From Squalus acanthias (Eukaryota), in contig CM059431.1 of the NCBI GenBank assembly GCA_030390025.1, positions 119,910,001 through 119,974,000 of the forward strand: DNA of 64,000 nt, in the 5' to 3' direction. This document shows positions 27,694 to 64,000 of this stretch, piece by piece. A program made the position numbers and the translations under genes. Within the stretch, counting starts at the first letter, position 1, and every line of letters starts with the position of its first letter. Below the pieces are notes generated by a model that made no database searches, was not told where the DNA came from, and saw only the letters and a program-made list of their open reading frames with translations.

Positions 27694-28649
27694 TGTGGTG
27701 CGGTGTACAAACTTGTTTTATCAATTTCCGCGAAATCGAATTCGTAAAATTGTCTGAACATCTTGGTCAACAGGACCTGATACAACTGTTCCGTCTTTTT
27801 GGGGCACCACTCTGGTAACCGCACCTCGGTGAGATTTAAAATCACCGAGGCCACCGCGTAATGTACCCCCTGAAATAGTATCTGGTCTGTGGGGACCAGT
27901 ACCAAACCATTCCCGGGTCCCTTACTAGTTTTAGGGCACCCTTCCTCTTCAGCTAGAACCACCGGAATCGTGGGCGGGGCTTTGCGTGGGCGCGTAATGA
28001 GTTCAGTGGCATTTACCGGGATCGAAGAGTATGGGGCTCCGCACCCACTGGTGCTCGCATCCCACCTCATCCCCTGTCCGTTATCCTGCCATTGATTAAT
28101 GAAAAATATGGAGATGCCTTTGGGGCAAGCGTACTTTGACCCCCACATGCATACATAAATTCCCTCATCCGGTTCCCACCATTTGTCCCAACAGACTCTC
28201 ACTTGTCCGTTTGTCCCCGTAATTGTCCGATGGGTATTATTACCCAGTCGTTCCCACTCGACCGAAGAGTTCCTCATGTTTTTGCTCAGCTTTCACAGCC
28301 ACCACCATCGGCTCAATGGGACATTCCCACTACAAGTCAAACAAATCCGTTTGCCGACGGTGACGCTGATCCTGGGTGCGATGATCCTTACTTTGGGGCA
28401 CATTAAAGAAGTCTCTTGGTAGGCAAACCCCGATGTGCTGGAATACTCCGTCGAGTTCGTTCCCAGCCATCCTGGCCACCTTCCCTTGTGGAAATAGGTG
28501 GTGGTCTCCTCAGCCTCCCGCCTTCCGGTCCCATCCACCGCGATGGGGGCCGTGTCCCCGGAGCATCCAAACACCACGACATCCTTGGTGCGGCCTCGAT
28601 AGGCCAATCCACATCCGATTGCCGCGAGCAATACTAGAATTCGTTCCAT
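27694..28649 (-). pseudogene. env: 5' part of env (signal peptide, Ig-like domain), cut before the furin site
   Basis: Nearly identical to the env at 54381-55336; CGA>TGA nonsense at 28293-28295. Confidence 0.9.
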
Positions 28650-28724
28650 CCTTCCTTGGTTCCTGTGATCAGATAGAATGAGGTAGCCAGCCTCGCAAGA
28701 GTCTCTGGCTTTTGTGAAGGGTGA

Positions 28725-31700
28725 CCTGGGGCTGACCATTCGCGCTGGGGAAAGAGCCATAGATAAGGCTAGGAGGGAGTCGGTGCAAGAGTTACCGATT
28801 CCTAACAACATAAGGGGTGTGAGGTCCTTCTTGGGACTGACCGGTTACTGCAGGGATTTTATCGAAGACTATGCGGCCACAGCGGCGCCGCTCCTCCGAC
28901 TCCTCCATAAGGGAGTGGAGTGGTCTTGGGACGAGGGCTGCCAAGCAGCCTTCGAGAAGTTAAAGAGGGATCTGCAGACCGCGCCAGCCTTAGGGGCCAT
29001 AGATGGGGGGAAGGAGTTTTTCCTGGAGGTAGCTGCCAGCGGGGATAGCTTGAGCGCTGTGCTGCTCCAAGAGCGTCACGGCAAGCTGAGGCTGGTTGTC
29101 TATTCGTCCAGGGTGTTAACAGATGTGGAGAGGAGTTTCTCCAATTGCGAAAGGCACCTTTTAGCCACGCATTGGGCTGTGAAAAGATCAGCGATCTTCA
29201 CAGGGCTCTCTCCCATCACTCTCCTCACCCATCATACACCAACTAAGATGCTTCCAGATGGGAGGATCAAAGATGGGACCGTAAGCAGCGTGCGTATTGC
29301 GCGCTGGACCCTTCTTCTTTCCCAGATGGATCTTAGAGTTAAAGGTCTTTGCGAGCCCAGGCTTGCGGCCAATTTGGTATACCCCGGTACAGCCCACCGA
29401 TGTTCGGTGGAAGGGGTGTGGGACGTCAACATAGGTTTGCGGGCCGGGATACATCCCACTGGGCGCGAGATTTATGTTGATGGTTCTAGCACAGTATCTG
29501 CTGGCGAACGACTCACAGGGTGTGGAGTTTATGACCCTGCGGCAAACCTTGCCCTGGCGATCAAGCTCCCTAGCACCATGAGCGCGCAGCAGGCTGAGCT
29601 GTCTGCCGTGGTGTACGTTGTTACCCACCCAGACATTTTCCTAACCCCATACACGATTTGCTCGGACAGTATGTTCACATGCAATTCGTGTACGGAATAC
29701 CTGGCCATTTGGTCCCGCTGTGGATACACCTCCGTGGACGGGCGACCTTTAACGGTGAAGCCCTTGCTGGAAAAGATCCTAGCAGCAGTAGGGGAGGAAG
29801 GGGAGATTTTCATCCATAAGGTGAAGGCTCACTCCTCCACAGAGCCCAGTGGGGAGGGCAACCAACAGGCGGATGCGCTAACCAGGGAAGGTGCCCGCAA
29901 CGGCATTTTCTGGGACCCCTATGGGACCAGACCCATGGCAGCGATCCAAGGCAGGGACGGGAATCCCGGGAACACCAGGGTAGCATTGCCCCTAGACCTT
30001 AAGACCGTCCAGAACCAGGATCCCGCCCTAAAAGCAGTCCTAAAAACCATTGCTGAGGGGAAGCAGGTAGAGGGTCCGTACAGTACGGCAACCCTCTCAG
30101 TTAAGGAAGGCATGCTGTTCCGCGAGGAGCAGTGGGTTGTGCCGCAGCAGCACAGGAGGGAATTCCTCCAGTTGGCTCACGAGGGACCAGGGGCAGGGCA
30201 CCCCGGGCCCGAGGTTACCTGGCAACGGGTAGAGCAAGCGGGATGGTGGCCGGGGCTCAGGGAACAGGTCCGCGAGTTCTGTGCAAACTGTCTCGTGTGC
30301 GCTGCAAACAACCCAGACCCCCAGAAAAGGAAAGTGCCCATGGGGCACGTAAGAAGGTTAGAGGGACCATGGCAGTCGATACAGATCGACTATATAGGAC
30401 CCCTGCCCACCACCCAGGGAGGCTATAAATACTGCCTCGTCTTGGTGGATGTGTTTTCCAAATGGGTGGAAGCCTTCCCCTGTCGAACAGCTACGGCACT
30501 GGGTACTGCAAAAATCTTGGTCAGGGAAGTGTTCTCGCGGTGGGGACTTCCCCGTTTTGTGGAGTCAGACCAAGGGAGTCATTTCACCGGCCAGGTGATG
30601 CAGAACACCCTCATGCTTTTGGGCATTGAAGGGAAGTGGCACGTAGCACACAATCCCCAGTCATCCGGGATTGTTGAACGCATGAACCGGACCCTGAAGG
30701 AGAAATTGAGGAAAGAGACTAGGAACTCGCCCCAAAAATGGGCGGAAGTTCTGCCTTTAGTCCTCATGGGGGTCCGGGCCAGTCAGTCAAAAAGTACGGG
30801 GTACTCCCCGCACGAGGTGATGACTGGGAGGCTCATGCGAACCCCCACCCATGTGCTAGCGCCGGTGCTCACTGAGGGTCAGCTCCAAGAGATAAGCAGG
30901 GACAAGTTCGCCCAGACCCTCTTGGAGCGCCTGAAGCAGGTTTATGAGCAGGCGGCTGGGAACATGGGAAGGCAGCATCAGGGCAATCGCCTGTTGCTGG
31001 AACCCCGCAAAACGCGGGAGTGGGAAGTAGGAGACCAGGTTATGGTCAGAAACTACGCAAGAGTAGGGAGTCTGGAACCACTGTATATGGGACCCTACAA
31101 TATTGTAGATAAGGCGAGTCCCATGGTATACGCCGTAAAGGTACCTCGGCGCACTAAGTGGTTCCACGTAAACCAGTGCAAATTGTACAAGCCAGGTGCA
31201 CAAGGGAAAACCACAGGGGCAAAACCTGCGAGTGGGGACTCGCAGCCCCAGGTAGGACCACAGGGCACACAGGCAGGCAAAGCAGCTTGCATCAGGGAAG
31301 GGGACATCCTGGAAAATTGTGAAACATTTTTGTGGGGTTGGGAGTCAGATGAGGGAGAGTTCCCGGAACTCGAGTCAGATGAGGATAGTGATGAGGACGA
31401 GTGGGAATCGGGGAACGCAAGGGTCGCCCCCGATTCAGGTATAGGGAGGACAGGGGCTGCAGATAGAGATCCACACAGGGTGGACACCGAGGCTGCAGGT
31501 CCCGAACACAGGAGGGAGGAGCTAGGGGAGGCGGAGCCAGCCGCTGTGAGACCACAGGGCGTGACGGCGGAAATCTCAGAGCCCGAGCCGCCCGCCTTGA
31601 ACGTCCTGCCCTCGAGGGAGGTAGGGATTGCAAGTGAAGGGCCGCCGGCTGGGCCGAGCAGGGCGGTGCCACAAGCTGCAAGTCCCGAGGTCAGGGAGGC

Positions 31701-32046
31701 GGAGTCAGGGGAGGCGGAGCCAGCGACTGTGGTGGGACCACAGGTCGTCCCGGCGAAAGTCTCGAAACCCGGTCCGTCGGTCCTGGGATTCCTGCCCCCG
31801 ACAACTCCTCGTAGGTCAGGTCGAGCACCCTAGCCCAGGAAGATGTGGTCATGTCCCCAGACTGCCCCAAGGCGCAGGTTTAAGGTTAAGGCAGCCCAGG
31901 TAGGGCCCAGTCCCATCGCAGCAGCAACAGGCTGCGGCAGATCAAAGGAAGGGGTCAGTGCAGCAACAGGCTGCGGCGGATCAAAGGAAGGGGTCAGTGC
32001 CCTCCCACCGTCGGGAAGAGCTCGCAGCAGCCTTCTCAGAATTTAA
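28725..32046 (+). pseudogene. pol: Inverted pol fragment: RT thumb, tether, RNase H, integrase and acidic tail
   Basis: VRSFLGLTGYCR, IYVDGSS, AQQAEL, HHCC, IQIDYIGP, SDQGSHF, GIVERMN; premature TAG at 31831-31833. Confidence 0.95.
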
Positions 32047-32278
32047 AGGGGCCGCCCTGAGAACGGGCGGCGCTGTACAGTTATAGTTTAAGTTTTAAGT
32101 TCATAGTTTAAGTTTAAGTTTCTAAGTTTAAGGTTAAGAATAAGGTTATAAGTTTATGGTTTTAAAATCGGGTTAAGTTTGTAGTTTAATTTTAACAGAA
32201 AATGGAAAAATGATGGGAGCTTTAGATAGGTCTAGTTAAAGTTTATTTAGTGAACATTGAAGTTTACGTGAGGCGAGG

Positions 32279-33565
32279 TCAGGGGACCCGCTCACCCTTC
32301 CTGGGGCTGCGCTGATATACTGGCCACAGCCTGTCGGCAAAAACCTTCGGGGGTTCTCCCTCCATCTGCACTGTCTGTCCCACTCTAACAAACGGACCTT
32401 CATCGTCCGTCCCCAACACTTCTAGGACCTCATTTTTTAATGCCTCATATGTCTTGGTTCCCCTCTTGCTCTCGTCCGAGAGACACTGAAGGATTGAACT
32501 GCCTAACGAAAATAACAGCATTTTTGCTGTTTCCCCATCATCGCAGCCGTTAATGGCTGCGGTTTGCTCAACTTCTCTGAAATGTACGGAAGGGTCGTCT
32601 GACTCGGTCAGCTTCCGTACGTGATTTATCATAACTCTCAGCTGGTGTGAGCTGTGAGGCAACACAAGCTGGTTGAGGAGATCCCCTGATTCCCCACCGT
32701 TCCCGTTTGGGCCCCTTTTTATACCCGTAACTGGATACAACGGTCCCTTTTCCACTTCTCCCTCAGTGGGCTCTTTCGTTTCTTCTACTACTTCCTCCCT
32801 TACCCAGGTTTCCGAATAGCTGGGTGGCGCGGAGGGCGTAGTGGCTAATACTTCCTTTGCTTTACTTGGTGGGAATTTCTGAGACTCCTCATCTACTAGT
32901 GGCTGGTGTGCTGACGGACTGATAAGGCACACCATGCCGTGCGCTTTGTTCACGGCCCTTTTAAGGTGTTCTATCTCCTTTTGGCAGACGCTATGATCGG
33001 CCCCCTGAAATTTATCCTCAAGGGCCATCTTATATGCCGCCCTAACCCCCGTTAAGCTATCTTCCTGGGCTCTTATTTGGGCAGCTTGGCGGGCACATCG
33101 TTCCTTTAGTCTGCCCTCACTTAACTTTGCCTCAGTGACCTGACACTCGAGGTAATCTATTTTTGCTTTGTGGTGACTGGTGATTTCCTGGCGTTCTCGG
33201 TGTAGCGCACTTAAATTCCTGATGAGCAACTCCCCTCCAGAGACTTTCTCATCCATTTCCTCCTCTAAATGCCTGATCCGAGCTGTTTGCGCTGTAATGA
33301 CCTGGTTTGAAATCTGGACCTGCCTTTTGTAACACATTAACCAGACTGCTTTCTCGACTGTCTTTTTATGTTCCTTACTATCTGTCCACCTCTCGGCTGC
33401 CTCTAGTGGACTCTTATCCGCTAACAGGTCACTTATCCATTTCTTAGTTAGATTTACCTTTCCGAACACATAATCTGCTATCTTTTCCTGCATAACATTT
33501 CGTACATTCACACCAAAGTCTAACACACTACCCTCTCGCTGCCAGTGTCCTGCCACGGTCGCCAT
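32279..33565 (-). CDS. gag: Truncated Gag (428 aa, open; lacks the NC zinc knuckle)
   Basis: About 90% identical by eye to residues 1-420 of the 602-aa Gag; ends in a junction-derived tail. Confidence 0.85.
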   Translation of the reverse strand: MATVAGHWQREGSVLDFGVNVRNVMQEKIADYVFGKVNLTKKWISDLLADKSPLEAAERWTDSKEHKKTVEKAVWLMCYKRQVQISNQVITAQTARIRHLEEEMDEKVSGGELLIRNLSALHRERQEITSHHKAKIDYLECQVTEAKLSEGRLKERCARQAAQIRAQEDSLTGVRAAYKMALEDKFQGADHSVCQKEIEHLKRAVNKAHGMVCLISPSAHQPLVDEESQKFPPSKAKEVLATTPSAPPSYSETWVREEVVEETKEPTEGEVEKGPLYPVTGIKRGPNGNGGESGDLLNQLVLPHSSHQLRVMINHVRKLTESDDPSVHFREVEQTAAINGCDDGETAKMLLFSLGSSILQCLSDESKRGTKTYEALKNEVLEVLGTDDEGPFVRVGQTVQMEGEPPKVFADRLWPVYQRSPRKGERVP

Positions 33566-33569
33566 TTTC

Positions 33570-35152
33570 TGTAAGGGTTTTTTTGTCTCTCAGCCTGTGA
33601 GATTCGTGTGGCTCTGTGCAGCCCGGGTGCTAGTGCGGGTTTAGGCCTTGTTGCCTGTTCTGGTCTCCAGCCAGTCTGGGAGCACTAGACACACTTGTGA
33701 GTCGTTCGACCCACTCGCCCTTACGGTTCTAGACACTGGACTTAGATGCGAGAGCAGTAATGGAGATGAAACTCAGGTAGACTCGGTTGAATGGTACGAA
33801 ATGGAAAATCTTTATTGCATATTACTTAAGATTACGAAATACATGTCATAAGCACAGATTAATGACAGTACAATCTTACACGCAGTTATGTAACTAATTT
33901 CGGGGAAACGAGGAACGAACGACACATCGTAAATGGGGGCACACATTACAATTATCCTTAATACTTAAAACCCTCCCCTATCAATATCTGTCCTAAGCTA
34001 GATTCGTAGGATTCGAGACTCATGCTCACCACTCGTGATAACTCGGAGAATTCCGAAAACTCTGATCGGATGTTTTTCACCGCAGCGCCCACGTGTCGAT
34101 CAGGGGGTCTCCTGGCCCCACTTGTTTACTCGTTTCTGCTCCGGCTAGCAGGCTGGAACGTCTGCTGTCATGAAGATCGGTGTTGACCTTGGATTCCCGA
34201 TCAAAACCTACAAAGTTCACTTATTTCGGGCGCGGTCGGGGTTTACTGACCGTGACGAGATGTATTGTCGTCTTCTCTTCTCATCTCATCTCATCTCATC
34301 TCATCTCGGGCCTTCGGTTCCAACACCGTTTACCGACTCCTCGGGATGGTGCGCCCGTTTCAAGGCTTCACAGCCCAGTTCTACACAGGTCTTCGCGACA
34401 CGACACGAGGTAGATCCGAGCGGATCGTAAAGTTCAACAGTCTTTTTTGAAAAGAGACACGAGGCAAGCAGGAACAAGACGGCGAGTCAAGAGCACAGGA
34501 GCAGCCACGAGGATAAGAGAGAGATGGACGGTTTGGAGCTTGCAATTATAGTGCAAAATCTTCCGTTTCCCGCCCAACCTTAATGTCTTTTCTTTTGTTA
34601 GGGTTTGGCGCTCAAATGTCTTGTATAGGGTGATCTTCGTTTTAATGGGTTTCGGGGCTACTCGTAAATGTCTGAGTACCTGTTAATATTTCTCCCATTG
34701 TTTAATCGGTCGGTGTTCTCCCTGGAGGGGTTTTGGGGCTTCCAAATGTTTTCTGTAACTACCCGCTAACGGCTCTCTCATCGTAGAGTCGTTGGGATTT
34801 TACATATTAATGTCTTTGGATGGGTTCTTGATTACTTGGTACAATAGCTTTTATTCGTACCTGGGAGACCGATTTCAGTATTTATGTGTATACTGTAAAC
34901 CCATGATGTCTCGTGTATTATCTTCAATGTGCTGAGTCTTAATCGATCTTGCACAAATGTTTACTGGAACGCCATCTTGTCTGCCTGTTGAAAAGTCTAG
35001 AATGTTCTGCCACGAGGTGCGGCGGCCATTTTACAAGCTGCTTGTGTCCACTTTGAAAACCTGACAGCATTCTGCTGAAATAAAAACTGTTTGAACGAAA
35101 CTCTGTGTTTTTCTCCTTATTAATAAAATCGCGATATATTGCGAATTCTACA
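33570..35152 (-). repeat. 5' LTR of the rearranged ERV (1583 bp), with PBS at 33547-33564
   Basis: TGTAAGGG...TTCTACA ends; homologous to the 1637-bp LTRs with indels; PBS TGGCGACCGTGGCAGGAC. Confidence 0.95.
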
Positions 35153-48245: not shown

Positions 48246-50896
48246 GACCAGCAGTGGGGTCGGGAGGACCAGACTGCAGCCTATGAAACCCAGGCAGAGA
48301 GGATCTGTGGGAAGGAGGGAGGAGGACAGTAGGAGTATGTTTGTGTGTGTGTGCTAGGCCACTGTAGCAGAGCCTGGTCTCCAATCGTCTTGGATCCCCT
48401 TGCCATTGGACCAAGACCTTGCTCTGTCATGCCCATGTGTTAGCTGGTGTGCAACGGCCACCCCACGTTAAACGAATTCACGCACAGGCATCTTCCACCC
48501 TTTAAAATGAAGTTCGGGACCTGGAACGTCAGGACCCTCATGGACAACCCCAACAGCGACAGACCGGAACGCCGTACTGCTATCATTGCCCGGAGCTCAG
48601 ACGTTTCGACATAGACATCGACGTCCTAAGCGAGACCCGGCGGGCAGGGGAAGGCCAGCTCAAGGAGCAAGGCGGTGGTTACACCTTGCTCTGGAAAGGC
48701 AAACCTGAAGAATACCGCCTCCATGAGGTAGGCTTCACCATAAAAAATGAGCTAGTTGAACGACTCAGAGACTCCCCTTGTGGAATGAACGAACGCCTCA
48801 TGACTCTACGGCTCATCCTAGCTCGGAACCAGTGCGCTACGGTCATCAGTGCGTACACCCCAACATTGGAAGCCACAGACGAGACCAAAGAGGAATTCTA
48901 CTCCAGCCTCGAACAATCCCTGTCCCGAGTCCCAACGGGCGACAAGCTGATCCTCCTTGGCAAATTCAACGCCAGAGTTGGAAAGGACACAGACCTCTGG
49001 TGTGTTCGGGAGAGACGGATTAGGGAAAGCCAACTCCAACGGTACCCTCCTCCTGACAAAATGCTTAGAACACGGCCTTGTCATAACCAACACCTTGTTC
49101 CGTCAGAGAGACAAGTACAAAGCTTCATGGCAACACCCTCGCTGCAAGCACTGGCATCTGCTGGACTACGTCATCATCCGAGCGAGGGACTGCAAGGACG
49201 TCCGCATCACCCACGCCATGAAAGGAGCTGATGACTGCTGGACAAACCACCGCCTAATCCGTTCTGTCATCTCCATCAACGTAGCCCCAAAACAGCGGTG
49301 GCAACAGAAGCAATGCCGCAGGAAAATCAACACTGGAGCACTCAAAGACCCTGCTAAGAAAGCCCTATTCAGCCTGCGCCTCACAAACAACCTGACGACT
49401 CCCAGTGATTGAGAGACACAGAATGTCCACAGCGCCTGGTCTGCACTCAAGGCCTCCATAATCAGCACCTGTGAAGAGACGCTCAGTCACTCGACCAGGA
49501 AACACCAAGACTGGTTCGACGAGAATGACCAGGAGATCTAGGTGCTAATAATCTGCAAGCGCAAGGCATTCCTGATCTGGAAACAGCAACAGAACTCGAG
49601 AGCAAGAAAGCAGCTCTACAGACGCCTGAAGGCTGAGGTCCAACAAAAAACTTGCGACCTAAAGAACAGATGGCGGGTGGAGAAAGCGCAGGAGATCCAG
49701 CAGCTAGCCGACAACCGAGAATTGCGTGGAGTCTTTTGTGCAGTCAAGACCACCTACGGCCCAAGCACCCAAGGTCCTACCCCACTGTGGGCCAAGAACG
49801 GAGAGGTACTCATCAAGGACAGAGAGGCAGTCAGTGCCCGCTGGAAGGAGCACTTCGAAGATCTCCTTAACCGAGACTCTGTCTTCTATGCGAGTGTCCT
49901 CAACTCCATCCCGCAGCATACTACCCGCCACCACCTCAGCACAACCCCAGCACGGCATGAGGTTGAAAAGGCCATCAGACAACTGAAGAACAACAAGGCC
50001 TCAGGAGCAGATGGAATCCCCACCGAGGTGCTAAAACATGGCGGAGAAGCACTATTGGCGCGAATACATTAACTCATTTTTCTTATTTGGAAGGAGGAGA
50101 GCATGCTAGGGGATCTCAGAGATGCCGTAATCGTGTCCGATTGTGGTAATTACAGAAGAGTCTCCCTACTGTCTGCCACAGGGAAAGTCATCGCAAGAAT
50201 CCTCCTCAATCGCCTTCTCCCAGTGGCTGAAGGGCTCCTCCCAGAATCGCAATGCTGATTCTGCCCACTACGGGGCACAATGGACATGATCTTCACCGCG
50301 TGTCAACTACAAGAGAAATGCAGGGAACAGTACCAACCGCTGTACATGGCCTTCTTTGACCTCACAAAGGCCTTCGACACCGTCAACCGTGAGGGATTAT
50401 GAAGTGTCCTCCTCAAATTCGGCTGCCCTCAAAAGTTTGTCACCATTCTCCGCCTGCTTCATGATGATATGCAAGCCGTGATCCTGACCAACGGATACAC
50501 CACATACCCAATTCACGTACGGACCGGGGTCAAGCAAGGCTGTGTCATCGCACCAATGCTCTTCTCGCTCTTCCTGGCTGCAATGCTCCATCTCACCCTC
50601 AGTAAGCTCCCCGCTGGAGTGGAGCTAATCTACAGAAAAAAAAGGAAAGCTGTTCAACCTCCGTCACCTCCAGTCAAGATCCAAGGTCGTCCCATCCTCT
50701 CATCGAATTACAGTATGCAGACGACGCTTGTGTCTGCACACACTCTGAGGCCGAACTCCAAACCATCGCTAACACCTTCACAGAAGCGTACGAGAGCATG
50801 GGCCTTACACTAAACATCCCTAAGACAAAGGTCCTCTACCAACCTGCCCCCGGCACACAGTACTGCTCCCCGATTATCAAAATCCATGATGAGGCC
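48051..50896 (+). mobile_element. RTE-clade LINE, 5' part (EN plus RT, disrupted)
   Basis: MKFGTWNVRTL at 48508, VISAYTPT, WQHPRCKHWHLLDY, KASGADGIP, GVKQGCVIAP, YADD. Confidence 0.92.
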
Positions 50897-52533
50897 TGTA
50901 AGGGATTCTGACCCTGCGTGTCTCGCAGCCTGTGAGATTCACGCGGCTCTGTGCAGCCTGTATGTCAGTGCGGGTTTAGGCCTTGTTGCCTGTTCTGGTC
51001 TCCAGCCAGTCTGGGAGCACTAGACACACCTGTGAGTGGTTCGAATCACTCGCCCTTACGGTTCTAGACACTGGACTTAGATGCGAGAGCAGTAATGGAG
51101 ATGAAACTCATGTAGACTCGGTTGAATGGTACGAAATGGAAAATCTTTATTGCATGATATTTAAGATTACGAAATACATGTCATAAGCACAGATTAATGA
51201 CAGTACAATCTTACAAGCAGTTATATAGCTGATCCTAGGGAAACGAGGAACGAACGACACACCGTAAATAGGGGCACACATTACAAGTATCCTTAATACT
51301 TAAACCCTCCCCTATCAATATCTGTCCTAGCTAGATTCGTAGGATTTCGAGACTCATGCTCACCACTCGTGATAACTCGGAGAAATTCCGAATAGCTGAT
51401 CGGATGTTTTTCACCGCAGCAACCACGTGTCGATCAGGAGGTCTCCTGGTCCCACTTGTTTACTTGCTTCTGCTCCGGCTAGCAGGCTGGACCGTCTGCT
51501 GTGATGAAGATCTGTGTTGGTTGGTTTAACAGGTACTTTCCGAATACAGCCCAGTCAATATCATCTTTGACGATCCGTTCTTGCAAGTTCAAAGAAGTCT
51601 TCCTGGCAAGGAAAACTTGGCTGTTCGACCTACAGGCACGGTCGGGATTTACTGACCGTGGCGATGAGTATGGTCTTCCTCTCTTCTCCTCTCATCTCAT
51701 CTCATCTCATCTCGGGCCTTTGGTTCCGATGCCAGTTACCAACATAGGTCTTCGTTACGCGACACGAGGTAGATCCGAACGGATCAGAAAGTTCAACAGT
51801 CTTTTTCAAAGAGGCACCAGGCAAGCAGGAACAAGACTACGAGTCAAAAACACAGGAGCAGCCAAGAGGTTACGAGTCGATCGGATAAGAGAATAAGAGA
51901 AAGATGGACGGTTGGAGCTTGTAATTATAGTACAAAATCTTCCGTTTCCCGCCCAACCTTAATGTCCTTTCTTTTGTTTGAGTTTGGCGCTCAAATGTCT
52001 TGTATGGGTGATCTCCGTTCTTAATGGGTTTCGGGGCTACTCGTAACTGTCTGAGTACCTGTTAATATTTCTCCCATTGTTAAATCGGTCGGTGTTCTCC
52101 CTGGAGGGGTTTTGGGGCTTCCAAGTGTTTTGTATAACTACCTGCTAACGGCTCTCTCATCGTAGAGTCGTTGGGATTTTACATATTAATGTCTTTTGGA
52201 TGGGCCCTTGATTACTCGGTACAATAGCTTTCATTCGTACCTGGGAGACCGATTTCAGTATTTATGTGTATACTGCAAACCCATAATGTCTCGTGTATTA
52301 TCTTCACTGTGCTGAATCTTAATCGATCTTGCACAAATGTTTATTGGAACGCCATCTTGTCTGCCTGTCGAAAAGTCTAGAATGTTCTGTCACGAGGTGC
52401 GGCGGCCATTTTACAGGTTGCTTGTGTCCACTTTGAGAAACCTGACAGCATTCTGCTGAAATAAAAGCTGTTTGAACGAAACTCTGTGTTTTCTCCTTAT
52501 TAATAAAAATCGCGATATATTGCGAATTCTACA
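50897..52533 (-). repeat. 3' LTR
   Basis: TG...CA ends; direct repeat of 61957-63593; minus-strand AATAAA at 51146-51151. Confidence 0.97.
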
Positions 52534-52546
52534 GTCCCTCCTGTTG
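52534..52546 (-). other. Polypurine tract
   Basis: CAACAGGAGGGAC immediately before the 3' LTR TG. Confidence 0.75.
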
Positions 52547-52984
52547 ATGCGAATAACTCCGCTTATCGTATCAAAAATCATAGTGGTGAGCAATATTATC
52601 TCGATTTCTCTCCGAATCCAGCAAATTAATCCCATAACTTTAACCTAATTAGGGTCTCTGTGTCGTCCTTATTTCCCAAGAAAATTACATTTTATATCAC
52701 CGTGGGCCTTTATTTGCCCTTAAACTTACACCACTTGTTTTCCTTCCCGGCGTAACCAGGCCGATGCCTCTCGTATTACCTGTATATTCATCTTTTATTC
52801 AGGGAAAGGAAAAACAACACCCAAAACGAAACAATCATTTTTAACTGTAACACCATCACCCAAAAATAATCAACACCAACTCTTAACATGTCGAGTTCCA
52901 AACGTATTTACAGTCTTTGAAAATCATGATCGAGTACAAACTTCCGCGGCGCACGTGGCGAGCGGGAATTACGCCATTTTCCGG

Positions 52985-55336
52985 TTACACGGTACTTTCA
53001 TCGTGCACGCGCACGTAACGTTCTCGCCACTCTCCCGTGTTTTCATGCTTGGTGAGGCGTTTGTCTCTTTTACAATGTACGACCAATAGGTACACTACAA
53101 TAAACACTTGACATACGACTAAAATGTGGGAGGCTATTCTGATCCATGAAGGCACTTCAATATTGGTGAACAGATTCCACCACGGTGGAACTACTATATC
53201 CAGAATGTCTGTTCCTATTTCGACAGTTTTCTGTTCTAATGTGTAAAAATGTTTCTGTGACACCGCGACGGCTTTTAAAAGCTTGGTGAGGTGTTCAGGG
53301 AGAGGGGGAATGAGGTATCCGAAATGCGCGACGAATCGTTGCAAGTCGGTGAAATTCTCTTTTACTGTGAGATGAACAGTGGATGGTTCAGGGATTGGGA
53401 TAATTCGCTGTTGTGCTACTTGAACTTCCGCCCTGGGTTTAAAACAGAAACTGCTGTCACTCACCGGACACCGGCTACGGTTTCCATGCTGGTAGTGTTG
53501 CGCTGCAGTGGTAACACAATATGTTCCACCCCCGATATATGCTACCTGCGGAGGCACATGATCTTGTGCCATTGCCTCCATGGTACAATTCATGGACTTG
53601 GCGCCAGTCGTTCTGAACCCTCACTGTGGTGTTAAAAAGGCATTCAAGTGCTGGGGGCACAGTATTATGTGTGCTCCCCTGCCACGACAACCAGAGAGAT
53701 CTGTACCTGTCATCGTTTGCTCCCAGCGGATGACGTAAGGTGGAACCGCTGCATAACGAATGTGGGCTTCCCCCTGAATGACACCAATGTTCTCTACCCG
53801 ATACACCGGGGCGGGCTTTGCTGTGTCGCCCAAAACCGGCATGCGTAAAACTATACCCATAATGGTATGGTTTGATCGTCCGCAGTCCACGGGGACTGGG
53901 TATGCTTCTGAAGCTAGCCTGAGCTGGCACGGGCTCAGTGCGTTCTGAAAAGGGTGGAGCGCCCGCAGGTGTTTGTTACTTATCCAGGACGGGACCAAAC
54001 CTTGTTTTAAATCCTCCAAATTACTGCGGCCTTCGCCCAGTAACCACGCCCCGTAAAGCACGCACACCTCGTTCTGCGCAGCTTGATCGGATGCATTCCG
54101 ATCTTCCCTAATCAGGGCATTTACCGTCTTTGCATGTTTCTCCAACTCTGCTATAATTTCCTTTAAATGGAGACTCATGGCTTGGTCCTCGTGTAGACCC
54201 GACCCTACCACTTTATTCTCATCTGTTAGAATGTCTTTTAATTGTGTCTTTAAACCATTAATCTGGGTCTGCAGCTCCACACTGTCTAGAGCGTTGACCA
54301 CAGATGTACCCGTGTTAAAAGCAGTGAACGCATCGTTCACCAAACCCCTTCTTTGCCTCCCTACTTGATCCAAAACTTCCTGTGGTGCGGTGTACAAACT
54401 TGTTTTATCAATTTCCGCGAAATCGAATTCGTAAAATTGTCTGAACATCTTGGTCAACAGGACCTGATACAACTGTTCCGTCTTTTTGGGGCACCACTCT
54501 GGTAACCGCACCTCGGTGAGATTTAAAATCACCGAGGCCACCGCGTAATTTACTCCCTGAAATAGTATCTGGTCTGTGGGGACCAGTACCAAACCATTCC
54601 CGGGTCCCTTACTAGTTTTAGGGCACCCTTCTTCCTCAGCTAGAACCACCGGAATCGTGGGCGGGGCTTTGCGTGGGCGCGTAATGAGCTCAGTGGCATT
54701 TACCGGGATCGAAGAGTATGGGGCTCCGCACCCCCTGGTGCTCGCATCCCACCTCATCCCCTGTCCGTTATCCTGCCACTGATTAATGAAAAATATGGAT
54801 ATGCCTTTGGGGCAAGGGTATTTTGACCCCCACATGCATACATAAATTCCCTCGTCCGGTTCCCACCATTTGTCCCAACAGACTTTCACTTGTCCGTTTG
54901 TCCCCGTAATTGTCCGATGGGTATTATTACCCAGTCGTTCCCACTCGACCGAAGAGTTCCTCATAGTTTTGCTCAGATTTCGCAGCCACCACCATCGGCT
55001 CAATGGGACATTCCCACTACAAGTCAAACAAATCCGTTTGCCGACGGTGACGCTGATCCTGGGTGCGATGATCCTTACTTTGGGGCACATTAAAGAAGTC
55101 TCTTTGTAGGCAAACCCCGATGTGCTAGAATACTCCGTTGAGTTCGTTCCCAGCCATCCTGGCCACCTTCCCTTGTGGAAATAGGTGCTGGTCTCCTCTG
55201 CCTCCCGTCTTCCGGTCCCATCCACCGCGATGGGGGCCGTGTCCCCGGAACATCCAAACACCACGACATCCTTGGTGCGGCCTCGATAGGCCAATCCACA
55301 TCCGATTGCCGCGAGCAATACTAGAATTCGTTCCAT
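52985..55336 (-). CDS. env: Envelope glycoprotein (783 codons, one in-frame TGA at 53621-53623): signal peptide, Ig-like domain, furin site, F-like fusion subunit, TM anchor
   Basis: MERILVLLAAIGCGLA signal; RQRR|GLV at 54347-54358; heptad repeat; TM IASHILVVCQVFIVVYLLVV. The 632-aa and 202-aa ORFs are in one frame. Confidence 0.9.
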
Positions 55337-55349
55337 CCTTCCTTGGTTC

Positions 55350-55372
55350 CTGTGATCAGATAGAATGAGGTA
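55350..55372 (-). promoter_or_regulatory. Candidate env splice acceptor
   Basis: CCTCATTCTATCTGATCACAG|G, 13 nt before the env ATG; identical in the second copy. Confidence 0.55.
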
Positions 55373-55622
55373 GCCAGCCTCGCAAGAGTCTCTGGCTTTT
55401 GTGAAGGGTGAGCGGGTCCCCTGACCTCGCCTCACGTAAACTTCAACGTTCGCTGAATAAACTTTAACTAAACCTATCTTTAAAGCTCCCATCATTTTAT
55501 CGTTTTCTGTTAAAAACACTACAATCTTAACCTTATTAAAACTATAAACTTAACCTTGAACTATGAACTTAAAACTTAAAACTTATTACTATACAGTGCC
55601 GCCCGTTCTCAGGGCGGCCCCT

Positions 55623-58600
55623 TTAAATTCTGAGAAGGCTGCTGCGAGCTCTTCCCGACGGTGGGAGGGCACTGACCCTTCCCTTTGATCTGCCGCAGCC
55701 TGTTGCTGCACTGATTCCTTCCTCTGATCTGCCGCAGCCTGTTGCTGCTGCGATGGGGCCGGGCTGTATCTGGGTTGCCTTAACCTTAAGTCTACGCCTT
55801 GGGGCAGTCTGGGGACATGACCACATCCTCCTGGGCTGGGGTTCTCTACTTGACCTACGGGGAGTTGCCATGGGCGGGGGTTCCGTGACTGACGGACCGG
55901 GTTCCGAGACTTCCATCGGGACGACCTGGGGTTCCACCACAGTCGCTGGCTCCGCCTCCGCTGACTCCGCCTCCCTAACCTCGGGGCTCGCAGTTTGTGG
56001 CTCCGCCCTGCTCGGCCCAGCAGGCGGCCCTTCACTCGCGATCTCTGCCTCCCCCGAGGGCGGGACGTTCAAAGCGGGCGGCTCTGTCTCTGGGGTCCTC
56101 ACCGTCACTCCCTGTGCTCCCACAGCGGCTGGCCCCGCCTCCCCTAGCTCCTCCCTCCTGTCTTCGGGACCTGCAGCTTGTGTGTCCACCCTGTGTGGAT
56201 CTCTATCTGCAGCCCGTATCCTCCCTATACCTAAAATGGGACCGTTCCCCAAAAACCACTCGTCTTCATCACTATCCTCATCTGACTCGAGTTCCCGGAA
56301 TTCTCCCTCATCTGACTCCCAACCCCACAAAAAGGCTTCATGATCTTCCAGGATGTCCCCTCCCCTGATGCAAGCTGCTATGCCTGCCTGTGTGCCTTGT
56401 GGTCCTACCTGGGGCTGTGCTTCCCCACTGGCGGGGTTTACCGCTGTGGTTTTCCCTTGCGCACCTGGCTTGTACAGTTTGCATTGGTTTACGTGGAACC
56501 ACTTAGTGCGCCGAGGTACTTTTACGGCGTATACCATGGGACTCGCCTTGTCTACAATGTTGTAGGGTCCCATATACAGTGGTTCCAGACTCCCTACTCT
56601 GGCATAGTTTCTGACCATGACCTGGTCTCCTACTTCCCACTCCCGCGTTTTGCGGGGTTCCAGCAGCAGGCGATTGCCCTGATGCTGCCTTCCCATGTTC
56701 CCAGCCGCCTGCTCATAAACCTGCTTCAGGCGCTCCAAGAGAGTCTGGGCGAACTTGTCCCTGCTTATCTCTTGGAGCTGACCCTCAGTGAGCACCGGCG
56801 CTAGCACATGGGTGGGGGTTCGCATGAGCCTCCCAGTCATCACCTCGTGCGGGGAGTACCCCGTACTTTTTGACTGGCTGGCCCGGACCCCCATGAGGAC
56901 TAAAGGCAGAACTTCCGCCCATTTTTGGGGCGAGTTCCTAGTCTCCTTCCTCAATTTCTCATTCAGGGTCCGGTTCATGCGTTCAACAATCCCGGATGAC
57001 TGGGGATTGTGTGCTACGTGCCACTTCCCTTCAATGCCCAAAAGCATGAGGATGTTCTGCATCACCTGGCCGGTGAAATGACTCCCTTGGTCTGACTCCA
57101 CAAAACGGGGAAGTCCCCACCGCGAGAACACTTCCCGGACCGAGATTTTTGCTGTACCCATTGCCGTAGCTGTTCGACAGGGGAAGGCTTCCACCCACTT
57201 GGAAAACACATCCACCAAGACGAGGCAGTATTTATAACCTCCCTGGGTGGTGGGCAGGGGTCCTATATAGTCGATCTGTATTGACTGCCATGGTCCCTCT
57301 ACCCTTCTTACGTGTCCCATGGGCACCTTCCTTTTCTGGGGGTCTGGGTTGTTTGCAGCGCACACAAGACAGTTTGCACAGAACTCGCGGACTTGTTCCC
57401 TGAGCCCTGGCCATCATCCCGCTTGCTCTACCCGTTGCCAGGTAACCTCGGGCCCGGGGTGCCCTGCCCCCGGTCCCTCGTGAGCCAACTGGAGGAATTC
57501 CCTCCTGTGCTGCTGCGGCACAACCCACTGCTCCTCGCGGAACAGCATGCCTTCCTTAACCGAGAGGGTTGCCGTACTGTACGGACCTTCTACCTGCCTC
57601 CCCTCAGAAATGGTTTTTAGGACTGCTTTTAGGGCGGGATCCTGGGCTTGGACGGTCTTAAGGTCTAGGGGCAATGCTACCCTGGTGTTCCCGGGATTCC
57701 CGTCCCTGCCTTGGATCGCTGCTATGGGTCTGGTCCCATAGGGGTCCCAGAAAATGCCGTTGCGGGCACCTTCCCTGGCTAGCGCATCCGCCTGCTGGTT
57801 GCCCTCCCCACGGGGCTCTGTGGAGGAGTGAGCTTTCACCTTATGGATGAAAATCTCTCCTTCCTCCCCTACTGCTGCTGCTAAGATCTTTTCCAGCAAG
57901 GGCTTCACCGTTAAAGGTCGCCCGTCCGCGGAGGTGTATCCACGGTGGGACCAAATGGCCAGGTATTCCGTACACGAATTGCAGGTGAACATACTGTCCG
58001 AGCAAATCGTGTATGGGGTTGGGAAAATGTCTGGGTGGGTAACAACGTACACCACGGCAGACAGCTCAGCCTGCTGCGCGCTCATGGTGCTAGGGAGCTT
58101 GATCGCCAGGGCAAGGTCTGCCACAGGGTCATAAACTCCACACCCTGTGAGTCGCTCGCCAGCAGATACTGTGCTAGACCCATCAACATAAATCTCGCGC
58201 CCAGTGGGATGTATCCCGGCCCGTAAACCTATGTTGACGTCCCACACCCCTTCCACCGAACATCGGTGGGCTGTACCGGGGTATACCAAATTGGCCGCAA
58301 GCCTGGGCTCGCAAAGACCTTTTACTCTAAGATCCAACTGGGAGAGAAGAAGGGTCCAACGCGCAATGCGCACGCTGCTTACGGTCCCATCTTTAATCCT
58401 CCCATCCAGAAGCATCTTAGTTGGTGTGTGATGTGTGAGGAGAGTGATGGGAGAGAGCCCTGTGAAGATCGCTGATCTTTTCACAGCCCAATGCGTGGCT
58501 AAAAGGTGCCTTTCGCAATTGGAGAAACTTCTCTCCACATCCGTTAATACCCTGGATGAATAGACAACCGGCCTCAGCTTGCCGTGACGCTCTTGGAGCA

Positions 58601-60143
58601 GCACAGCGCTCAAGCTGTCTCCGTTGGCAGCTACCTCCAGGAAAAACTCCTTCCCCCCATCTATGGCCCCTAAGGCTGGCGCGGTCTGCAGATCCCTTTT
58701 TAACTTCTCGAAGGCTGCTTGGCAGCCCTCGTCCCAAGACCACTCCACCCCCTTATGGAGGAGTTGGAGGAGCGGCGCTGCTGTGGCCGCATAGTCTTCG
58801 ATAAAGTCCCTGCAGTAACCGGTCAGTCCCAAGAAGGACCTCACACCCCTTATGTTGTTGGGAATCGGTAATTCTTGCACCGACTCCCTCCTCGCTTTGT
58901 CTATGGCTCTTTCCCCAGCGCGTATGGTCAGTCCCAGGAATTTTACTTCCCGCTGACCGATACGAGCTTTCTTAGGATTTATTTTAAAACCCTTTCTCGC
59001 TAGCAGCTCCAATAACTCGTCCAGTAGTGGTCCATGCTCCTCCCTTGAGTCCGTAAATAGGAGCAAATCATCCACGTACTGCACTATCTGATTGGGCTGA
59101 CTAAACTCCTTTAAACTTCCTGCCATACACTGATGGAAAATACTGGGGCTATTGTGGAAACCCTGTGGCAGACAGTTCCATGTGTACTGTTGTCCTTTGA
59201 AAGTAAAGGCAAACTTGTACTGGTCCTCTCGCCTCAGCGGGATGGACCAAAAACCGTTCGAGATATCCAGCACCGTGAACGTGGTCGCGGACGCTGGGAT
59301 GCTCCCTATTAGGTCAGCAACTGCTGCTACCGTGGGCGCGCAGGCGGGAATGTTACTGTTAAGGACTCTGTAGTCCACCGTGGCTCTCCACGAATTATCC
59401 GGCTTCCTAACCGGCCATAATGGGGAGTTCACGTGTGTGGCTATCGGCCTCAACACGCCCTGCTGCACCAAGGAGGACATTGCTGTCTCCATATCGGGTT
59501 CTGCTTCTTTGGGGAAGTTATACTGCTTTTGGGGTCGGGTCATGGGGTCCCCCTCTACGCTGACCTCAAACCCGATAACCCTCCCACAATCGTGCTTGTG
59601 GGTTGCAAACGCGTGCATATTATCTGACACGTACGTTTGCATGTCCGTTGGGACATCTGCGACCATAAGCCTGAGGTCGTAGCCTCCGGATGGCTGTACG
59701 GTACACAGGACCCCTGTTTCTTCCTCCCCCGGAATCACTACTACCTCGCCTTTTTCACCCTTAGCCCCCCAGAGACAGTGATTTCTGAGGTCCACGAGGA
59801 TCCCGTGTCCCGATAGAAGATCAGACCCGAGAATACCTCTTCCACCCCCCTCCTGCCATTCCATCAGTATACACTTCCACTTAAGGTGAAGTGCTCCCAA
59901 ACGAATGGATAGCGGAAGGGAGAACGCGCCAGCCTGTTCTTTTCCTGTGAACCCCGCTAACGTGAATGGGACCCTGGTAGATAGCGGCGAGTCAAAAGGG
60001 CTATCTGTATGGATTATGGTGCAAGAAGCTCCCGTGTCCAACAAATAACTACCCCTCTGTTTCTCTACCTCCATCTCCTCCAAAGGTCGCTTCCACGCAT
60101 CATAGCTAAGCGGACACAGGTAGACGGGCTGCGCGGGTTCTAG
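55623..60143 (-). CDS. pol: Pol: protease, RT, tether, RNase H, integrase, acidic tail; one nonsense at 57414-57416
   Basis: LLDTGA, LPQGFHNSP, YVDD, YVDGS..AEL..SDS..HS..NQQAD, HHCC and DDE motifs. The stop is TGG (GWWP) in the other copy, and the frame continues. Confidence 0.95.
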
Positions 60144-61952
60144 TCATGGGGTACTATTAGACGGTCCTGCGGCACTTACGGGGCCGGTTGCGACCGCCAC
60201 CTTTCCATGTGCACTCAATAGATTGCGCATGGCTCCTAACACTACTTCGAGGTCGTCGGGAGGGGTGGGTGCATTAGCTTCCCTAGCCGGGACAGGCGCC
60301 TGGGCTCGGACCGCGGGATTTTTATCCTTGGAATCTTTCCAAGGGTTCCTGCAATGCTTGCGCCAGTGCCCTGTCTTCCCACACCCGTAACAAGCATTAC
60401 TTGCCTGTGGGGCGCGATTACCCTCCTGATGCCGCTCTCTTTGATACGGGGCTGCGGGTCGTACCTCATGTACTTTTCCCTTAAGGGGACGTGTTGCCAT
60501 ACCCCTTATATTGCGATATCCTAACGTGAGTCGATTCAAGACCGACTCTTCCGTAATGTTGGGGTCATTGGGATCAAACCATGCTTTTGCCTGCTCTCTG
60601 ACGGCTGATAAACTGTTGGCTATTATGCACCTAAGCCAATGAGCTAAACCGGCGCCTTCCACATCTTCGCGCTCGGGCGCACCTAGACAGCTGCGCTCAT
60701 ATACTGGCCACAGCCTGTCGGCAAAAACCTTCGGGGGTTCTCCCTCCATCTGCACTGTCTGTCCCACTCTAGCAAACGGACCTTCATCGTCCGCCCCCAA
60801 CACTTCCAGGACCTCATTCTTTAATGCCTCATAAGTCTTGGTTCCCCTCTTGCTCTCGCCTGAGAGACACTGAAGGATTGTACTGCCTAACGAAAACAAC
60901 AGCATTTTTGCTGTTTCCCCATCATCGCAGCCGTTAATGGCTGCGGTTTGCTCAACTTCTCTGAAATGTACGGAAGGGTCGTCTGACTCGGTCAGCTTCC
61001 GTACGTGATTTATCATAACTCTCAGCTGGTGTGAGCTGTGAGGCAACACAAGCTGTCCGAGGAGATCCCCTGGTTCTTCCCCACCGTTTCTGTTTGGGCC
61101 CCTTTTAATACCCGTTACTGGATACAACGGTCCCTTTTCCACTTCTTTCTCAATGGGCTCTTTCGTTTCTTCCATTGCTTCCTCCCTAACCCAGGTTTCC
61201 GAATAGCTGGGTGGCGCGGAGGGCGCAGTGGCTACTACTTCCTCTGCTTTACTTGGTGGGGATTTCTTAAACTTCTCACTTACTAACGGCTGGTGTGCTG
61301 ACGGACTGATAAGGCACACCATGCCGTGCGCTTTGTTCACGGCCTTTTTGAGGTGCTCTATCTCTTTTTGGCAGGCGCTATGATCGGCTCCCTGAAACTT
61401 ATCCTCAAGGGCCAACTTATATGCCGCCCTAACCCCCGTTAAGCTCTCTTCCTGAGTTCTTATCTGGGCAGCTTGGCGGGCACATCGTTCCTCTAACCTG
61501 CTCTCATTTAACTTTGCCTCAGTGACCTGACACTCGAGGTAATCTATCCTTGTTTTATTGTGACTGGAGATTTCCTGGCGTTCTTGGTGCAACGCACTTA
61601 AATTCCTAATGAGCATTTCCCCTCCAGAAACCTTCTCATCCATTTCTCCCTCTAAATGACTGATTCGAGCTACTAGCGCTGTAATGGTCTGGTTTGAAAT
61701 CTGAACCTGCCTTTTGTAACACATAAGCCAGACTGCTTTCTCGAGTGTCTTTTTATGTTCTTTACTATCTGTCCACCTTTCGGCTGCCTCTAGTGGACTT
61801 TTATCCGCTAACAATTCACTTATCCATTTCTTAGTTAGATTAACCTTTCCGAACACATAATCTGCTATCTTTTCCTGCATAACATTTCGTACAGTCACAC
61901 CAAAGTCTAACACACTACCCTCTCGCTGCCAGTGTCCTGCCGCGGTCGCCAT
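60144..61952 (-). CDS. gag: Gag (602 aa, intact)
   Basis: Coiled-coil N-terminal region, PSAPPSY, MHR-like QMEGEPPKVFADRL and CCHC knuckle CYGCGKTGHWRKHC. Confidence 0.93.
   Translation of the reverse strand: MATAAGHWQREGSVLDFGVTVRNVMQEKIADYVFGKVNLTKKWISELLADKSPLEAAERWTDSKEHKKTLEKAVWLMCYKRQVQISNQTITALVARISHLEGEMDEKVSGGEMLIRNLSALHQERQEISSHNKTRIDYLECQVTEAKLNESRLEERCARQAAQIRTQEESLTGVRAAYKLALEDKFQGADHSACQKEIEHLKKAVNKAHGMVCLISPSAHQPLVSEKFKKSPPSKAEEVVATAPSAPPSYSETWVREEAMEETKEPIEKEVEKGPLYPVTGIKRGPNRNGGEEPGDLLGQLVLPHSSHQLRVMINHVRKLTESDDPSVHFREVEQTAAINGCDDGETAKMLLFSLGSTILQCLSGESKRGTKTYEALKNEVLEVLGADDEGPFARVGQTVQMEGEPPKVFADRLWPVYERSCLGAPEREDVEGAGLAHWLRCIIANSLSAVREQAKAWFDPNDPNITEESVLNRLTLGYRNIRGMATRPLKGKVHEVRPAAPYQRERHQEGNRAPQASNACYGCGKTGHWRKHCRNPWKDSKDKNPAVRAQAPVPAREANAPTPPDDLEVVLGAMRNLLSAHGKVAVATGPVSAAGPSNSTP
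61934..61951 (-). other. Primer-binding site, tRNA-Arg(UCG)
   Basis: TGGCGACCGCGGCAGGAC is complementary to the vertebrate tRNA-Arg-TCG 3' end GTCCTGCCGCGGTCG-CCA (recalled sequence). Confidence 0.85.
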
Positions 61953-61956
61953 TTTC

Positions 61957-63593
61957 TGTAAGGGATTCTGACCCTGCGTGTCTCGCAGCCTGTGAGATTC
62001 ACGCGGCTCTGTGCAGCCTGTATGTCAGTGCGGGTTTAGGCCTTGTTGCCTGTTCTGGTCTCCAGCCAGTCTGGGAGCACTAGACACACCTGTGAGTGGT
62101 TCGAATCACTCGCCCTTACGGTTCTACACACTGGACTTAGATGCGAGAGCAGTAATGGAGATGAAACTCATGTAGACTCGGTTGAATGGTACGAAATGGA
62201 AAATCTTTATTGCATGATATTTAAGATTACGAAATACATGTCATAAGCACAGATTAATGACAGTACAATCATACAAGCAGTTATATAGCTGATCCTAGGG
62301 AAACGAGGAACGAACGACACACCGTAAATAGGGGCACACATTACAAGTATCCTTAATACTTAAACCCTCCCCTATCAATATCTGTCCTAGCTAGATTCGT
62401 AGGATTTCGAGACTCATGCTCACCACTCGTGATAACTCGGAGAAATTCCGAATAGCTGATCGGATGTTTTTCACCGCAGCAACCACGTGTCGATCAGGAG
62501 GTCTCCTGGTCCCACTTGTTTACTTGCTTCTGCTCCGGCTAGCAGGCTGGACCGTCTGCTGTGATGAAGATCTGTGTTGGTTGGTTTAACAGGTACTTTC
62601 CGAATACAGCCCAGTCAATATCATCTTTGACGATCCGTTCTTGCAAGTTCAAAGAAGTCTTCCTGGCAAGGAAAACTTGGCTGTTCGACCTACAGGCACG
62701 GTCGGGATTTACTGACCGTGGCGATGAGTATGGTCTTCCTCTCTTCTCCTCTCATCTCATCTCATCTCATCTCGGGCCTTTGGTTCCGATGCCAGTTACC
62801 AACATAGGTCTTCGTTACGCGACACGAGGTAGATCCGAACGGATCAGAAAGTTCAACAGTCTTTTTCAAAGAGGCACCAGGCAAGCAGGAACAAGACTAC
62901 GAGTCAAAAACACAGGAGCAGCCACGAGGTTACGAGTCGATCGGATAAGAGAATAAGAGAAAGATGGACGGTTGGAGCTTGTAATTATAGTACAAAATCT
63001 TCCGTTTCCCGCCCAACCTTAATGTCCTTTCTTTTGTTTGAGTTTGGCGCTCAAATGTCTTGTATGGGTGATCTCCGTTCTTAATGGGTTTCGGGGCTAC
63101 TCGTAACTGTCTGAGTACCTGTTAATATTTCTCCCATTGTTAAATCGGTCGGTGTTCTCCCTGGAGGGGTTTTGGGGCTTCCAAGTGTTTTGTATAACTA
63201 CCTGCTAACGGCTCTCTCATCGTAGAGTCGTTGGGATTTTACATATTAATGTCTTTTGGATGGGCCCTTGATTACTCGGTACAATAGCTTTCATTCGTAC
63301 CTGGGAGACCGATTTCAGTATTTATGTGTATACTGCAAACCCATAATGTCTCGTGTATTATCTTCACTGTGCTGAATCTTAATCGATCTTGCACAAATGT
63401 TTATTGGAACGCCATCTTGTCTGCCTGTCGAAAAGTCTAGAATGTTCTGTCACGAGGTGCGGCGGCCATTTTACAGGCTGCTTGTGTCCACTTTGAGAAA
63501 CCTGACAGCATTCTGCTGAAATAAAAGCTGTTTGAACGAAACTCTGTGTTTTCTCCTTATTAATAAAAATCGCGATATATTGCGAATTCTACA
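61957..63593 (-). repeat. 5' LTR
   Basis: 1637 bp; only 4 mismatches to the 3' LTR found by eye. Confidence 0.97.
62984..63018 (-). promoter_or_regulatory. Candidate LTR core promoter
   Basis: GGGCGGGAAACGGAAG (GC box/E2F/ETS-like) followed by TATAAT; largely kept in all three LTRs. Confidence 0.5.
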
Positions 63594-64000
63594 GGCCTTG
63601 GACAATGTAGACCACTTTCCATACCTCGGGAGCCTACTGTCAACAAGGGCAGGCATCGATGATGAAGTCCAACACCGCCTGCAGTGTGCCAGTCCAGCCT
63701 TCGGTCGCCTGAGGAAGAGAGTGTTTGAAAACCAGGACCTCAAACCCAGCACCAAGCTCATGGTCTACAGAGTAGTAGTGATACCCGCCCTCCTGTATGC
63801 TTCAGAGACATGGACCATGTACAGCAGGCACCTCAAAGCACTGGAGAAGTACCACCAATGCTGCCTCCGCAAGATCCTGCAAATCCATTGGCAGGATAGG
63901 CGCACCAACGTCAGTGTTCTCGCTCAGGCCAACATCCCCAGCATCGAAGCTTTGACCACGCTCGATCAGCTCCGATGGACGGGCCACATCGCCCGCATGT
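63594..64000 (+). mobile_element. RTE LINE continuation after the ERV
   Basis: Removing the ERV and one GGCC restores the frame KIHDEALDNVDHFPYLGS. Confidence 0.92.

Follow-up and report, generated by a model that had tools for sequence, protein, structure and literature searches.

A UGA-CUAG gag–pol junction in a Squalus acanthias endogenous retrovirus as a probable site of programmed readthrough

The question raised by this locus of Squalus acanthias is how a retrovirus whose gag ends in UGA could make its Pol; namely, whether the stop codon is a programmed leaky signal or damage to one inserted copy. We analysed a window of 64,000 nucleotides (64 kb), on the minus strand of which gag closes with CCA (60149–60147) and TGA (60146–60144), followed by CTA GAA down to 60138. 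Past the TGA the same frame reads LEPAQPVYLCPLSYDAWKRPL..., reaches the protease DTG, the catalytic Asp of which is residue 36 (60038–60036), and stays open for 909 codons, whereas upstream the gag frame is open for 602 amino acids from an ATG at 61952. The original prediction, which had described CCA TGA CTA GAA and an open frame into the protease, is correct in sequence and coordinates. The junction (60140–60149, minus strand) places UGA in the type II leaky context, in which CUA or CGG comes directly after UGA and a coding frame continues in phase beyond the stop; here the stop is followed by CUA, extended to CUAG, and the −1 codon, CCA, encodes proline. This context is rare. On both strands of the window, 2 of 2256 TGA triplets belong to TGACTAG and 13 of 2256 to TGACTA, a chance of 0.1–0.6% that a leaky context follows a TGA, and within the element TGACTAG accounts for 1 of 113, the junction itself.

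The junction lies in a 12.7-kb endogenous retrovirus (50897–63593, minus strand), recognized by paired TG...CA LTRs with a target-site duplication and by the order gag, PR-RT-tether-RNase H-IN and then env with a furin site and a membrane anchor. The 5′ LTR (61957–63593; 1637 nt, TG...CA), with a TATA-like box at LTR position 1307 and AATAAA at 1383, differs from the 3′ LTR (50897–52533) at 4 of 1637 positions. A 4-bp duplication, GGCC (50893–50896 and 63594–63597), flanks the provirus, which sits within a single LINE reverse-transcriptase frame and splits it. Because the LTRs are near-identical, the insertion is recent, roughly 2–3 million years old at the rate of 0.5 × 10−9 per site per year assumed for sharks in PMC10699275. 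Among the many LINE fragments elsewhere in the window is a frame (16199–16699, minus strand) that we take to be Harbinger-transposase-like, with a neighbouring ORF on the opposite strand (14769–15668, plus strand).

The gag gene (60144–61952) encodes 602 residues, with a coiled-coil N-terminal half, a capsid-like middle and one CCHC knuckle before the terminal TGA. In the same frame, pro-pol (55623–60143) encodes protease, reverse transcriptase (RT, with YVDD), tether, RNase H and an integrase with a long C-terminal tail; Pfam finds all of these domains, the protease below the cut-off. The integrase tail (55623–56450, minus strand) comprises about 270 residues, is acidic and proline-rich with short repeats near its end, and is far longer than in the closest relatives. 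The env frame (52985–55549) has a weak Ig-like domain (Pfam Ig_3, E = 0.075), an RQRR furin-type site, a putatively F-like ectodomain and a membrane anchor; language-model features place Env at 0.94 to a Fusion_gly cluster, and Pfam gives no fusion-protein match. The features of the ectodomain resemble those of paramyxovirus F and gypsy/baculovirus F (0.93–0.95), though the RT is not of lokiretroviral type, and by eye the Env of snakehead retrovirus (SnRV) also opens with a similar-looking Ig-like stretch. A purine-rich tract (52534–52545), the putative PPT, precedes the 3′ LTR. At the other end, a primer-binding-site-like stretch (61934–61951) starts with TGGCG and is presumably tRNA-Ser-like; the 64-kb window holds no tRNA gene for comparison. 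The first gag AUG overlaps this stretch, right after the 5′ LTR (61934–61956, minus strand), with no leader after U5. The same gag N-terminus is annotated in a skate relative, and a Met 24 residues later is common to all three Gags compared.

Two further in-frame TGA codons break this copy, one in the integrase (57414–57416) and one in env (53621–53623), both in non-leaky contexts. The junction TGA taken alone could therefore be a lesion as well, so that relatives had to be compared. The second family copy in the window (27694–35152), rearranged and 86–98% identical in blocks, contains part of env, an inverted pol segment, the 5′ part of gag and one LTR, and is without the gag–pol junction. 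In alignments, the Gag homologues P0061, from skate (53% identity), and P0062 (45%) both end one residue past the last Gag residue of the element, with ...PQ. Within the skate cluster, three of four members share this end, the fourth being shortened to 334 amino acids, so that four Gag relatives in all share the stop position; as these were compared as proteins, they give the position of the stop and not its codon or context. Judged from these alignments, the Gag end is a conserved feature, which argues that the junction stop is not a lesion. The relatives end in ...PQ and the element in Pro, and the element copy may thus be atypical. No DNA of a close relative came to light in contigs from viruses, metagenomes and prokaryotes, and the viral ones yielded reference retroviruses only. 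As a counter-point, the coelacanth gene model P0088 runs from gag into pol without a stop, and it belongs to the same RT clade as the element; this fusion may be an open copy or an artefact of the gene model. In P0088, residues 225–270 cover the passage from Gag to protease, and Gln stands there roughly where the element has its stop.

A sign that translation crosses the junction comes from the stretch of 23 codons that separates the stop from the first Met of pol (60075–60143, minus strand), in which residues 10–20 carry the retropepsin N-terminal motif. That Met, at residue 24, precedes the catalytic Asp by twelve residues, and the RP of the motif stands 17 residues ahead of the Asp, a spacing shared by 6 of 11 relatives. 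Scored against these 11 relatives, residues 10–20 reach 22.9 and rank top among the 81,043 11-mers of the window, in a set in which the block of P0054 is mis-anchored and most relatives were found with a query containing the scored segment. An independent but weaker control, restricted to the 4 relatives identified through their RT, gives 15.2 (5th of 379 RP-ending 11-mers). The family profile aligns the stretch with residues 5–10 of HIV-1 protease, and the Pfam RVP match, below the cut-off, begins at residue 17; a single-sequence structure model of the protease is unusable (pLDDT 35). The N-terminal region of retropepsins contributes to the dimer interface. As the conserved protease N-terminus precedes the first Met, the codons between stop and Met must be translated. 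Comparison of the two pol copies in the window (52 synonymous and 23 non-synonymous codon differences over 776 codons) indicates that pol was under purifying selection and functional in the family.

Routes around the stop other than decoding it are few. No slippery heptamer was found near the junction, both non-pol frames hit stops at most 15 codons away, and a search of the element found no SECIS or other relevant Rfam family, only four weak unrelated matches; together these make readthrough the simplest route. We consider programmed readthrough of the UGA the best explanation, with a probability of about 0.75. The proposal that Pol is made in this way is thus supported in part: it is favoured by the conserved Gag end, the protease N-terminus ahead of the first Met, purifying selection on pol, the rare context, its recurrence in other fish and frog retroviruses and the lack of a slippery heptamer, and is weakened where the strength of the signal is concerned, by the proline at −1 and the want of a detectable stimulator. 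In the proposed mechanism, full-length RNA would be translated from the gag AUG and most ribosomes would terminate at UGA, releasing Gag, while a small share, probably a low single-digit percentage, would decode UGA with a near-cognate tRNA, CUAG after the stop presumably weakening termination. In-frame continuation would give Gag-Pro-Pol, to be cleaved by the protease, and the outcome would be a high Gag:Pol ratio. Gamma-, epsilon- and snakehead retroviruses reach such a ratio too, but here the type II context of alphaviruses and cellular genes would take the place of UAG-G and a pseudoknot.

How strong this signal might be was approached by folding single sequences and comparing them with shuffles, in 8 windows and a sliding scan. 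The fold of the roughly 150 nt downstream, which the original prediction had proposed as a search for a stimulatory structure, brought out none that is significant: from the stop, 157 nt gave z = −1.33, six other windows, none beginning upstream of the stop, gave z from −1.5 to +0.75, and the lowest value among the 10 windows of the scan was −2.3, at +60 to +160. A candidate H-type pseudoknot (60071–60134, minus strand) starts at +13 with 6 + 6 bp, and its 12 bp equal those of two MLV-like controls; it is not above background, its score being reached at 21 of 150 sites drawn at random from the element. A 2026 review (PMC13517186) describes UGACUA as needing downstream structure only conditionally and puts readthrough at UGACUAG in human genes at about 1.3% or more. 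In a deep-mutational scan of three human UGA-CUAG genes (preprint 10.64898/2026.07.14.738498), all four proline codons at −1 lowered readthrough to the level of the negative control, and by analogy the CCA of the element speaks against this copy being read through efficiently. The objection is softened by SnRV, in which CCA likewise precedes the UAG. A further warning comes from Tca2, the UGA junction of which did not by itself allow readthrough in yeast (PMC2194720), suggesting that such a junction need not suffice.

These points feed an alternative that is possible but rather doubtful, in which the family reads through and this copy carries a weak or dead signal, its UGA-CUAG being a relic or a partial signal; working rates would then require another codon at −1, or else a stimulator that is remote or acts in trans. 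The loss of readthrough with −1 proline in human reporters points this way (10.64898/2026.07.14.738498), as do the ...PQ ends of the relatives, the two other stops in this copy and the five lokiretroviral UGA-CUA junctions considered below, 0 of 5 of which have Pro at −1. However, the human data need not apply to fish ribosomes, SnRV replicates with CCA-UAG, and the near-identical LTRs bespeak a recent insertion. We regard as unlikely a separate Pol in the foamy style, for which an RNA beginning at Met24 would arise by splicing or internal initiation, or the AG of CTAG would serve as a splice acceptor. P0001, whose Pol is closest to that of the element, likewise has a Met at the equivalent place, fold and sequence searches both place foamy Pol structures high in their rankings, Tca2 has a promoter at its junction (PMC2194720), and some 20 nt before CTAG a CTAAT resembles, by eye, a weak branch point with an acceptor. 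Yet a start at Met24 would forfeit the conserved protease N-terminus with its RP motif, no clear polypyrimidine tract is seen, and the element neither groups with foamy viruses nor shares the arrangement of the foamy reference loci, in which gag is out of frame with pol.

That gag–pol was originally one open frame, broken after insertion by a nonsense mutation whose leaky context arose by chance, is very improbable, even though two further TGA lesions mark this copy and both P0088 and 10 of 24 lokiretrovirus consensuses, annotated as fused gag-pol, appear to lack the stop. The Gag end position shared by homologues at several skate loci and by P0062 largely refutes a lesion, and the 0.1–0.6% chance of the context counts against it as well; when the protease region was used to look for longer relatives with gag and pol fused, only P0001 came up, and it starts past the junction, a weak point in the same direction. 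Frameshifting is the commonest retroviral route to Pol. At this junction, however, a bypass of the UGA by frameshifting or its recoding as selenocysteine has the slightest probability of all the explanations weighed here: pol is in the gag frame, the other frames close within 15 codons, and the slippery heptamer and the SECIS are both missing from the searches described above. Programmed readthrough accordingly remains our preferred reading.

To place the element, we compared its RT with 64 reference loci that have an RT frame, and the locus labelled L001 scored best (225 bits, against at most 185.5 bits for the other 63, whose group labels we assumed from length and junction). L001 is SnRV, as its length of 10,688 (PMC12193657) and its UAGGGC junction (PMC13517186) indicate. 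In a careful 52-row tree, which omits mostly near-duplicates and bird gamma-like sequences from a 135-row tree that was built by a quick method only, the element and P0001 fall in a clade (support 90/92) with frog, coelacanth and further endogenous retroviruses (ERVs). This clade lies outside the gamma, epsilon and foamy references, the last being mammalian only with fish foamy-like ERVs left out, and away from the loki-like P0157, a stand-in picked by eye; the backbone is without resolution. Foldseek comparison of the RT model made the classification no sharper. Gammaretrovirus and Epsilonretrovirus were rejected, as the RT is outside both groups and the junction is not UAG-G. A foamy or spumaretroviral assignment was set aside on the position of the RT relative to the mammalian foamy references, the location of pol in the gag frame and the CCHC of Gag. 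A lokiretrovirus, the initial guess, was abandoned because the protease comparison differs and the RT lies away from P0157. The element is accordingly filed, on sequence comparison, as an unclassified SnRV-like, class III-grade ERV without a named genus.

Retroviral readthrough is usually taught as UAG with a pseudoknot. Neither readthrough as a strategy nor UGA at gag–pol junctions is new, and the contrast implied by the original prediction, that retroviruses use UAG and a UGA would be novel, was overstated: SSSV, ZFERV and RMERV have UGA junctions (UGAAGA, UGACGA and UGAAGU, respectively; PMC13517186), as does XtERV-S (UGA-CAG in the supplement of PMC8278194). The accessible text of the 2026 review counts three aquatic retroviruses with UGA, none of type II, does not list UGA-CUA(G) for retroviruses, and calls the signals of fish retroviruses unclear (PMC13517186). 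We found no description of UGA-CUAG readthrough in retroviruses or lokiretroviruses in a literature search that most subscription journals and Repbase lay outside, and nothing on a retroviral UGA-CUA(G) in the accessible parts of PMC8310308, PMC5210030, PMC5512871, PMC10435555, PMC3835772, 10.1101/2021.11.23.469661 and PMC9040795. The type II context in retroviruses thus seems uncatalogued, yet published sequences from two further lineages contain it as well. Whether pseudoknot-independent type II readthrough is a recurrent Gag-Pol route of aquatic-vertebrate retroviruses, arisen or kept independently in at least three lineages (that of this element, a subclade of teleost lokiretroviruses and the class III ERVs of frogs that resemble ERV-L), is to our mind evenly balanced. 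If it is, such viruses would use the host's own leaky-stop code, and confirmation would reveal a context-driven readthrough route common to retroviruses, alphaviruses and host genes. For annotation, proviruses with a UGA junction may be wrongly discarded as broken, and a Pol called from a downstream Met loses the N-terminus of its protease.

Among known systems, SnRV resembles the element in its in-frame gag-stop-pol arrangement, Pro at −1, RP-to-Asp spacing and CCHC Gag, and has 32 codons from stop to DTG where the element has 36. It differs in its UAG-GGC junction and in its LTRs, those of the element being 1.6 kb long; the tree gives no supported grouping of SnRV with the clade of the element, and comparison of SnRV Gag and Env with those of the element gave no significant sequence match. 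MoMLV and WDSV, representing the gamma- and epsilonretroviruses, likewise have an in-frame Gag-Pol with the stop between nucleocapsid knuckle and DTG. Gammaretroviruses need a pseudoknot for readthrough. The use of UAG claimed for both groups was borne out by UAG-G in 12 of 12 reference loci with a long in-frame upstream gag, SnRV included, out of the 64. SSSV, ZFERV and RMERV share the UGA junction but are epsilon-related.

XtERV-S is ERV-L-related, with YIDD, a dUTPase and a gamma-type Env, in contrast to the element, with YVDD, no dUTPase match and a putatively F-like Env. In the supplement of PMC8278194 a bullfrog relative of XtERV-S, a class III ERV, carries UGA-CUAG at the corresponding site, and the accessible text of that paper makes no remark on the CUAG. 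Lokiretroviruses have an F-like Env, which that of the element may resemble, and share with the element the RXRR site and a dual RNase H, but differ in the protease region, P0157 groups with Ty3-like rows, and none was reported from six chondrichthyan genomes (PMC7947760). Four of the 17 TGACTAG matches listed from the supplement of that paper are at gag ends (Ofa, Cne, Pyo and Sau), and Loki-Bsp has UGA-CUAA at its gag end, with a frame shift later. By eye, gag therefore closes with UGA-CUA and the protease follows in the same frame in at least 5 of 24 consensuses (4 CUAG and 1 CUAA), 10 others being annotated as fused and the junctions of the remaining 9 lying outside the count. The flanks of the five junctions differ widely, and the words readthrough, suppression and stop codon do not occur in the main text of PMC7947760.

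Alphaviruses often add a 3′ stem-loop to UGA-CUA, and the element is without a significant one. The nsP3–nsP4 junction of alphaviruses (UGACUA) and human AQP4, MDH1, LDHB and OPRL1 (UGA-CUAG) belong to genes unrelated to the element. The leaky context that had been claimed for alphaviruses, LDHB, MDH1 and AQP4 agrees with the available text of PMC13517186 and 10.64898/2026.07.14.738498, and the stop codon and positions +4 to +7 of these sites are identical to those of the element.
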